Notes: generated from the sequence alone by a model not told the origin. Positions 25,215 to 25,671 are shown, counted from the stretch's first letter. The stretch: 64,000 nucleotides of DNA from a virus (IMGVR_UViG_3300025942_000001); one strand, 5' to 3'. Program-made: numbers and translations.

Positions 25215-25671
25215 CCCCGCAAGGGGGATGGCCCGGAGGGTCAGGGGTAAAAGCCTGATTCCAAAGGTGTTCACACGAAACTTGAGAACTCAATAGAGAT
25301 AGCGCGGAAGATACCGAGCTAACAACGGATACACCAATTAAATTGGTGTGTATAGATCCGGGGGATTATTTTTCCTAATGCCCTGTTAGTGACCGACGTG
25401 AGGAACCGGCTACGTGTGGGGAAAATACACGGGACCGCATACAAAAGACTCACAGTGAAACAAAAGCGCAGCCTCTTTCACGGGGTAATAATCGTGAATA
25501 TGGTGAAAGTCAAGAGAGTTGATAAATCGATTGTTCCGACTCTGCTGTGATCATGCCGGTATGAATCCGATCATTTATCCATCTTGACGGAAACTGAAGT
25601 GCTACCCGATTGTTTTAGGGGCCGGTGACCCGCCCAATGCTACGGACATATAAACAATCGGTTTGCAGTAT
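25215..25671 (+). ncRNA. candidate large structured ncRNA 1 (~455 nt)
   Basis: No credible ORF. Stems 25331-38/25342-49, 25509-15/25582-88, 25516-20/25538-42, 25606-15/25652-61; possible pseudoknot 25521-27/25573-79. Confidence 0.65.
25281..25296 (+). promoter_or_regulatory. rRNA-leader-like (boxA/processing stem) motif
   Basis: CTTGAGAACTCAATAG matches, from memory, the conserved TTGAGAACTCAA(T/C)AG of actinobacterial rrn leaders; ~70 nt after the promoter, preceded by GCAA-loop hairpins. Confidence 0.6.

Follow-up and report, generated by a model that had tools for sequence, protein, structure and literature searches.

What does a phage make from a kilobase of its genome that holds no gene? 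The question is raised by a 64,000-nucleotide (nt) stretch of the virus IMGVR_UViG_3300025942_000001, here called the window, which corresponds to bases 57028-121027 of a 137,582-base pair (bp) IMG/VR virus record with direct terminal repeats. In the window, a gene-free region of ~1.2 kb closes in a tRNA match at 25672-25755. Directly before this match lies 25215-25671, here called RNA 1, which a preliminary description had presented as a large structured RNA without open reading frames (ORFs) and of no recognized family. We find RNA 1 to be real: it is a non-coding RNA of ~450 nt, conserved and folded, from an uncultured actinobacterial phage. RNA 1 belongs to no Rfam family, its front resembles that of an rRNA (rrn) operon, and its back resembles that of MALAT1/mascRNA. 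We hold, with slightly better than even confidence, that this structured RNA of ~450 nt comes from a phage transcription unit built like an rRNA operon.

RNA 1 is conserved, folded and non-coding

Relatives were reached via the 387-amino acid (aa) protein encoded downstream of RNA 1 (27040-28203), which was searched in a collection of 5.8 billion proteins. Its closest homologs are 47-74% identical and lie on contigs of up to ~140 kb, and the contigs that were fetched lack genes over 1.0-1.8 kb at the corresponding position. The element is present upstream of the 387-aa gene in 12 further metagenomic phage contigs; the contigs listed as bearing it are L033, L034, L040-L047, L049, L050 and L057. 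A DNA pattern from a conserved block brought in four metagenome contigs, and a second, looser pattern brought in L057. By blastn and nhmmer, the element was not found in relatives with ≤50% identity in the 387-aa protein (L003-L030 and L052) or in L051 (52%), and 50,697 GenBank phage records contained no DNA match to 24500-25800 or to the L042 element. The window is 60-62% identical to L042 and L043 over ~1.1 kb (24559-25640), where the neighboring 387-aa protein is only 52-54% identical, and 78% identical to L033 over 24516-25299, with 100-nt identical runs and an adjacent protein gene at 72.6%.

No gene was called in the element of any homolog, and comparison of 25215-25671 with the relatives gave no conserved ORF or coding signal on either strand: the 53-aa ORF of the window is riddled with stops in relatives, the three codon positions take even shares of the substitutions, and the lengths of indels do not follow multiples of three. 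A candidate conserved antisense ORF, with 130 stop-free codons in L041, was rejected because of these even substitutions and frame-breaking indels and because the stop-free runs do not coincide between relatives. Scanning with Rfam models (cmscan; the whole window at the gathering threshold, 24300-26000 at E ≤ 10 and four relatives at E ≤ 1) returned only the tRNA and weak chance matches, leaving tRNA as the sole family matched, and neither Aragorn nor Rfam called a transfer-messenger RNA (tmRNA) in the window or relatives.

On the single sequence, the fold signal is barely above chance (minimum free energy z-scores of −1.94 on the + strand and −1.85 on the − strand), and by a rough count only one 10-bp stem is unexpected in 457 nt. 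The evidence for folding comes from the five members that align over the full length, i.e., the window, L041, L042, L043 and L050, for which RNAalifold proposes 121 pairs; pairing is canonical in 92% of cells, and in 29 pairs both sides have changed. This consensus fold has an energy of −84.3 kcal/mol, whereas shuffling the columns of the alignment 30 times yields −28 to −50, and the 29 covarying pairs compare to an average of ~14 (maximum 24) in the shuffles and to 4-10 when partners are slid by 1-3 columns. Thus, pairing is conserved with compensatory changes in the relatives, beyond shuffled and slid controls, and the description of RNA 1 as a large ORF-free structured RNA without a recognized family is borne out by covariation, by the lack of a coding signal and by the lack of an Rfam match beyond tRNA. 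The reverse strand folds at −72.1 kcal/mol. We assigned RNA 1 to the + strand because the genes, the tRNA and the rrn motif described below all lie on it; the number of G-U pairs relative to A-C was dropped as a strand indicator because RNAalifold picks G-U on whichever strand is folded.

The conserved non-coding region reaches ~650 nt further upstream of 25215. This gene-free block (24566-25180, + strand) follows a terminator-like hairpin (24537-24565) and is 77-78% identical to L033, with long identical runs, and 60-62% identical to L042 and L043. Its consensus energy is −57.0 compared to −38.5 ± 4.9 in the null, and its covariation is not above the null; because of this weaker fold and the lack of excess covariation, 25215-25671 is the most structured part of the region. 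Conservation without excess covariation in the block would also suit an element that acts as DNA, such as an origin, a packaging or regulatory site or a decaying spacer, or stems that arose by chance, in which case the inverted repeats would be meaningless as RNA, and the marginal single-sequence z-scores, alike on both strands, fit this explanation too. However, the paired columns of 25215-25671 change on both sides far beyond the shuffled or slid controls, and stems swap their sequence wholly yet stay complementary, as helix P1 described below does in at least seven versions. Moreover, G-U pairs are common (59 cells compared to 12 for A-C, a count biased by the way the structure was chosen). 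We, therefore, regard a DNA-level element or chance stems as very improbable.

At the 3' end of RNA 1 lies a three-way junction, M3 (25606-25661, + strand; model R1, alignment A6), which is found in 12 of the 12 homologs reaching that part. P1 of M3 is the 10-bp stem CCGATTGTTT (25606-15)/AAACAATCGG (25652-61) of the preliminary description, which is kept with compensatory changes: 7/7 pairs covary, and at least seven unrelated sequence versions, each complementary, occur, among them CCGAUUGUUU/AAACAAUCGG, CCGAUGAAUUC/GAAUUCAUCGG, AAUCGCU/AGCGAUU, GUCAG.../...CUGAC, UUCACC/GGUGAA and UCUGAYU/AGRUCAGA. P2 (GGGGC-C-GG/CC-C-GCCC with a UGA loop) retains its Y-C mismatch and three-base loop and changes G-C to A-U and G-C to G-U. 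P3 (AUGC-UACG-G(A)CAU) is a UNCG-type hairpin in the window and is extended in L041-43 and L050 by a covarying GNRA-capped hairpin (AGUC/GACU, CCACU/AGUGG, UUGCC/GGCAA and UAGCC/GGCUA). Compensatory changes affect 9 of the 17 pairs of M3, and 96% of its paired cells are canonical compared to 78.9 ± 2.0 in shuffles (0/500) and 33-44% in slid controls, with a covariation score of 0.383 compared to 0.133 (0/500). Of 500 shuffles, none or almost none reach the pair counts of M3 and of domain C below; the alignments behind these counts had been fitted to the model. The distance from the end of M3 to the tRNA-like element is 9-14 nt in 10/12 homologs, the exceptions being L034, with a long insertion, and L046, with no clear acceptor stem. 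Model R1 found no second copy in the window and none in 154 Actinomycetota genomes searched (3 + 151), M3 was not found in the more distant phage relatives searched, and pattern scans of IMG/VR with the M3 core gave mostly chance matches. Both the RNA 1 family and the M3 junction are new to us.

Upstream of M3, domain C (25509-25588, + strand; model R2, alignment A8, six sequences) forms one long irregular hairpin with the helices GUCAAGA/UCUUGAC, GAUAAAU/AUUUAUC, UUG/CGA and GA-C-UCUGCUG/CGGUA-U-GA-A-UC and an apical loop at 25548-55. Canonical pairs fill 91% of its paired cells compared to 79.1 ± 1.5 in shuffles (0/500), and 20/39 pairs are changed on both sides compared to 7.1 ± 1.9 (0/500) and to 3-6 in slid controls; a covariance model from five members also recovers domain C of L046 (E = 1.7e-4). 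The changes in the fourth helix are wobble-compatible or compensatory only. The apical loop (25548-25555) holds a palindromic hexamer, UGAUCA, in the window and UUUAAA in L041, and the palindrome is not conserved in L042 or L050.

This fold decides among the finer claims of the preliminary description. All the complementary segments that it named are present, displaced by at most 1-2 nt; four of its six stems hold in relatives, a fifth is specific to the window, and GAGTT/GACTC is not conserved. GTCAAGA (25509-15)/TCTTGAC (25582-88) is the outer stem of domain C and is kept with compensatory changes. GATAAAT (25521-27) and ATTTATC (25573-79) likewise pair with compensatory changes, but as a helix nested in one long hairpin rather than as half of an H-type pseudoknot; in relatives, counterparts of these two helices include UGACGU/ACGUCA and UGAAU/AUUCA. 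The hairpin that was to host the pseudoknot, GAGTT (25516-20)/GACTC (25538-42), pairs 2/5 in L041, L042, L043 and L050, and because it is not conserved, the pseudoknot falls; in the nested fold that covariation supports, the partner of GACUC is instead the 3' strand CGGUA-GA-UC. The proposed resemblance of GGTATGAATCC (25558-68) to a T-loop does not survive either, since in domain C this segment pairs with GACTCTGCTG as the 3' strand of helix 4. L040, L044, L049 and L057 represent a second type of architecture with a homologous domain C core, in which the 3' strand is CCCACGAAUCC, CCGCGUAUCC and similar and the partner strand covaries by eye (CGUG/CACG, UGCG/CGCA, CGCG/CGCG and AUGCG/CGCAU). 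In these four contigs, the GG of GGTATGAATCC is CC, making a GG...CC closure impossible, and thus there is no T-loop hairpin.

Further upstream, domain B (25302-25469, + strand; from RNAalifold on the five full-length members) is a multibranch structure, and only five or six sequences cover domains B and C. Compensatory changes occur in the sub-helices of domain B and in its closing helix, GCGC/GCGC, which is GCGG/CCGC in relatives. A conserved helix, CGGAU/AUCCG (25326-30/25356-60), caps a variable hairpin at 25331-49; the 8-bp stem ACACCAAT (25331-38)/ATTGGTGT (25342-49) noted earlier is present there as a hairpin specific to the window and is lacking in relatives. Helix GUGAG/CUCAC (25398-02/25449-53) covaries (GUGGUG/CACCAC in L041). 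The window and L050 have almost the same hairpin at 25407-25437, even though L050 belongs with L041-43 in other respects. The loops of two domain B hairpins are complementary (25367-25375/25419-25427, UAUUUUUCC/GGGAAAAUA) and may form a tertiary contact; the complementary run is 11 nt in the window, which 12/1000 shuffles reach, 8 nt in L050 and 5 nt, i.e., chance level, in L041-43. Between domains B and C, 25471-25498 (+ strand) can form two mutually exclusive hairpins, CCUC/GGGG and UUCACG/CGUGAA, with the counterparts CCCGG/CCGGG and GUCAC/GUGAC in relatives. The stem TTCACG (25477-82)/CGTGAA (25493-98) of the preliminary description has a counterpart in relatives but competes with a second conserved hairpin, and the pair could be a conformational switch.

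An rrn-leader motif in front and a tRNA-like module behind

At 25282-25296 (+ strand), RNA 1 carries TTGAGAACTCAATAG, a 15-mer that is an exact copy of the actinobacterial rrn leader motif. The window has no other exact copy of it, the 137.6-kb genome contains the 10-nt core GAGAACTCAA exactly once, and L033, L041, L043, L046 and L050 retain the 15-mer. In a scan of one genome per prokaryotic species, the 15-mer was present in at least 120 genome contigs, nearly all from Actinomycetota (Arthrobacter, Nocardia, Mycobacterium, Mycolicibacterium, Corynebacterium, Brevibacterium and others); where its position was checked, it precedes 16S by 120-370 nt on the same strand in 8/8 loci, and the host 15-mers sit within the consensus TGTTGTTTGAGAACTCAATAGTGTG. 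The 15-mer, thus, points to an Actinomycetota host. The RNA form, UUGAGAACUCAAUAG, lies ~70 nt into the predicted transcript and is, judging from its sequence, the 3' half of boxA plus the boxC/NusA site. The RNA in the NusA co-crystal of Beuth and colleagues (2005) is reportedly GAACUCAAUAG. In the Mycobacterium tuberculosis rrn operon, boxC is a specific NusA site in which the trinucleotide AUA is critical (PMC2724277). Over boxA as a whole, CGAAACUUGAGAA of the window matches host UGUUGUUUGAGAA (Escherichia coli core UGCUCUUUA) in the 3' half only; the boxA of relatives is closer to that of the host in L033 (GCUCUUUGAGAA), L044 (GUUCUUUGAUGAA) and also L046.

The motif is preceded by a putative promoter, TTGACA-17 nt-TACTTT (25181-25209, + strand), from which transcription would start at about 25213-25216. 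The TTGACA box and its spacing are kept in most relatives, many of which have a second TTGACA box 83-145 nt upstream. The predicted transcript opens with the hairpin CCCC-GCAA-GGGG (25215-25226, + strand), which is identical in L033 and L046 and is replaced by GUUG-CACCA-CAAC in L041-43 and L050. In the block upstream of the promoter, a first TTGACT occurs at 25045, followed by the conserved GTGCGTACTTGTG, and a degenerate ACAACTCAA motif lies at 25096; in sequence, this layout looks like the tandem P1/P2 promoters of an rrn operon.

Behind RNA 1, a spacer of 10 nt (25662-25671, + strand), defined by position only, separates M3 from a tRNA-like 3' module (25672-25755, + strand; Rfam tRNA, 50.1 bits). 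In the window, this module is a full cloverleaf with an aberrant anticodon arm, in which Aragorn reads a 4-nt anticodon. This tRNA-Tyr-like gene is the only cloverleaf in the family; the modules of relatives are D-armless and 61-95 nt long. Aragorn found no tRNA in 11 relatives, and the module of L042 scores 24.5 bits, below the Rfam cut-off of 29. The module, accordingly, does not qualify as a regular tRNA, of which a cloverleaf with a 7-nt anticodon loop and U33 and recognition by tRNA finders would be expected. What is kept, in 11/12, is a perfect 7-bp acceptor stem and 5-bp T stem, a TTCRANT loop and a discriminator A. Both stems covary, the acceptor stem in versions such as GGGAAUG/CAUUCCC, GGGAGCG/CGCUCUC, GGGAGUG/CACUCCC and GAGAGUG/CACUCUC and the T stem in five versions, and two contigs, L040 and L049, encode CCA after the discriminator base. 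A minihelix of acceptor and T arm is the least that RNase P, RNase Z and the CCA-adding enzyme require of a substrate, and the module has the 7-bp acceptor, 5-bp T stem, 7-nt T-loop and discriminator of an RNase P substrate minihelix.

The tRNA descent of the 3' element could also mean that the locus is the graveyard of a degraded phage tRNA or tmRNA array of which only the last copy still scores as a tRNA. Arrays of tRNA genes are frequent in large phages, and the next non-coding gap begins with a second tRNA(-like) element. However, Aragorn and Rfam give no additional tRNA or tmRNA signal, either in 24300-26000 or in the relatives, and compensatory changes and invariant junction strands would not persist in decaying pseudogenes at 52-74% identity of the neighboring protein. 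We give hardly any credence to a tRNA graveyard.

A proposed production route and its alternatives

The order of these parts suggests how RNA 1 might be made. Transcription would start at the promoter (25181-25209), near 25215. The rrn-leader 15-mer would load Nus factors of the host onto RNA polymerase, and the Nus-loaded polymerase would allow the long untranslated, folded RNA and the early genes behind it to escape Rho termination; we propose resistance to Rho because any long untranslated RNA needs such protection. The modular folded domains, i.e., domain B, domain C and M3, whose folds are supported by covariation, would follow. RNase P would then cut on the 5' side of the tRNA-like minihelix, at 25671/25672, and release RNA 1, a cleavage that we infer because a tRNA-like substrate lies downstream of the spacer. 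Finally, M3 would be a compact 3'-terminal structure that shields the released RNA 1 from 3' exonucleases.

Each end of the unit has a known counterpart. As in bacterial rrn leaders (boxB-boxA-boxC) with Nus antitermination, a promoter leads into a leader with the identical 15-mer UUGAGAACUCAAUAG, and as in rrn operons, a long untranslated structured RNA is followed by a tRNA-type module. In contrast to rrn operons, the unit is borne by a phage, its cargo is not rRNA, and the 5' half of host boxA is not kept in the window; Nus binding and antitermination are predicted steps. In 3'-end formation of MALAT1/mascRNA, a non-coding RNA likewise stands directly before a non-decoding tRNA-like minihelix, with a compact conserved structure, here M3, ~10 nt upstream of the predicted cut. 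However, RNA 1 belongs to a bacterial virus rather than to mammalian nuclei, M3 is a three-way junction and not a triple helix, and cleavage and stabilization of RNA 1 are predicted steps. The stable RNAs of the phage T4 tRNA cluster (species 1 and 2) are co-transcribed with tRNAs and matured by tRNA-processing enzymes of the host; they are much shorter than RNA 1 and have no sequence relation to it, and we know of no rrn-leader mimic for them.

The relatives vary in what lies between the two ends. In L033, the rrn motif is followed by a short hairpin domain and then M3, without domains B and C, and L040, L044, L049 and L057 have other 5' and middle modules, with domain B replaced. Across relatives, four parts thus stay constant (promoter, rrn motif, M3 and tRNA-like tag), and the cargo between them varies. 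This constancy of the frame, together with the deletion of domains B and C in L033 and their exchange in others, is what would be expected of the main rival to our reading, in which the region acts purely in cis as the 5' leader of an early operon beginning at 25799, with a nut-like site and insulating hairpins, where the tRNA-like element serves only to trim and stabilize the mRNA and the RNA that is cut out would be without a function of its own. Downstream of the tRNA-like element come small genes on the same strand and no terminator, as expected of such a leader. However, where domains B and C are present, they keep many compensatory changes and invariant internal-loop strands, which would be costly for a mere spacer, and M3, at a fixed 9-14 nt from the predicted cut, would be placed to protect the upstream product rather than the mRNA. 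We consider a purely cis-acting leader rather unlikely.

Our own reading, of RNA 1 as the product of a unit built like an rRNA operon, has to be weighed against several points that count against it. Domains B and C may be dispensable, given that some relatives lack them and others have exchanged them. The fold of domain B comes from the five full-length sequences only, four of which are close kin. Folding sets the strand weakly, and the assignment comes mainly from context. A strict sigma-70 promoter and terminator consensus scan of 24300-26100 listed nothing, and with TTGACA-17-TACTTT not listed, the promoter is a reading of the sequence. The window does not keep UGUUGU, the 5' half of host boxA, and we deduce from sequence that Nus factors would be loaded, that RNase P would cleave and that the product would be stable. 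A bolder form of our reading, which we put forward tentatively and think more apt to fail than to hold, is that RNA 1 represents an undescribed class of large phage RNAs that takes over the rRNA production line of the host from end to end. Mimicry of the rrn leader would recruit the Nus antitermination and folding complex, and the tRNA-like tag and the 3' three-way junction would provide for maturation by RNase P and for stabilization. The outcome would be a trans-acting RNA of high abundance whose functional domains can be exchanged and which might, for example, act as a decoy or scaffold early in the infection of actinobacteria.

Among large phage RNAs, GOLLD and ROOL are found in phages and prophages, often near tRNA islands, with tRNAs sometimes inside GOLLD (bioRxiv 10.1101/2024.12.08.627333). 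RNA 1 shares with them a large, multi-domain form that looks free of protein, a phage location and an adjoining tRNA(-like) element, but it has no Rfam similarity and other helices and junctions, is smaller (~450 nt) and has swappable domains. The shared context, an ornate phage RNA joined to a tRNA(-like) element, raises the question of whether mature RNA 1 might, in the manner of GOLLD and ROOL, assemble into an RNA-only multimer, cage or ring, for which the palindromic apical loops of domain C in some members (UGAUCA in the window, UUUAAA in L041) also speak. However, these loops are not conserved, the searches at E = 10 in the window and E = 1 in four relatives gave no match in a library that we believe to include GOLLD and ROOL models, and a single fixed quaternary architecture fits poorly with domains that are lost as modules. 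Self-assembly, therefore, seems improbable to us.

Genome setting and meaning of the RNA 1 family

Every gene flanking RNA 1 is on the + strand. The upstream neighbor of the gene-free region is a 290-aa ORF (23635-24507), which is followed by the terminator-like hairpin; between this hairpin and 25799, no ORF exceeds 64 aa. Directly 3' of the tRNA-like element, a hydrophobic 44-aa ORF with a TTG start (25799-25933), whose DNA is nearly identical in L046, is probably the first protein gene of the unit. Pfam and PHROGs assigned no function to the neighboring proteins, and a PDB sequence search with the 387-aa protein gave nothing useful. In relatives, genes shortly upstream of the element have a faint match to Rho_N (PF07498; L042 2404-3393, L050 671-1657 and L043 1988-2770); their 290-aa counterpart in the window has no Pfam or PHROG match.

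RNA 1 lies in a G+C-richer island (~23.5-34.3 kb; 48-55% G+C compared to 38-40% for the genome), and this island (23500-34300) contains both large non-coding gaps as well as small genes without a Pfam match. The second gene-free gap, downstream of the 387-aa gene, also begins with a tRNA(-like) element in relatives (L033 3902-4014, 45.7 bits and 113 nt; L042 7204-7269, 25.1 bits), and the corresponding site in the window is 28893-28951. RNA 1 and RNA 2 of the window have only 8-15-mers in common, at chance level, and thus share no module. A second odd tRNA lies at 59-128 of the window (Rfam, 42.2 bits), in which Aragorn reads a 2-nt anticodon in a 6-nt loop.

Large phage RNAs such as GOLLD and ROOL are among the least understood, and how they are produced is poorly known. 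The RNA 1 family offers a production logic that can be read, in which an exact host rrn-leader signal marks the 5' end, a tRNA-like tag that does not decode marks the 3' end, and a conserved junction would cap the matured end. The 15-mer also suggests an Actinomycetota host for an uncultured clade of phages of ~130-140 kb with only 38-40% G+C, and the swappable domains provide natural deletion variants from which the function of these RNAs may be worked out.

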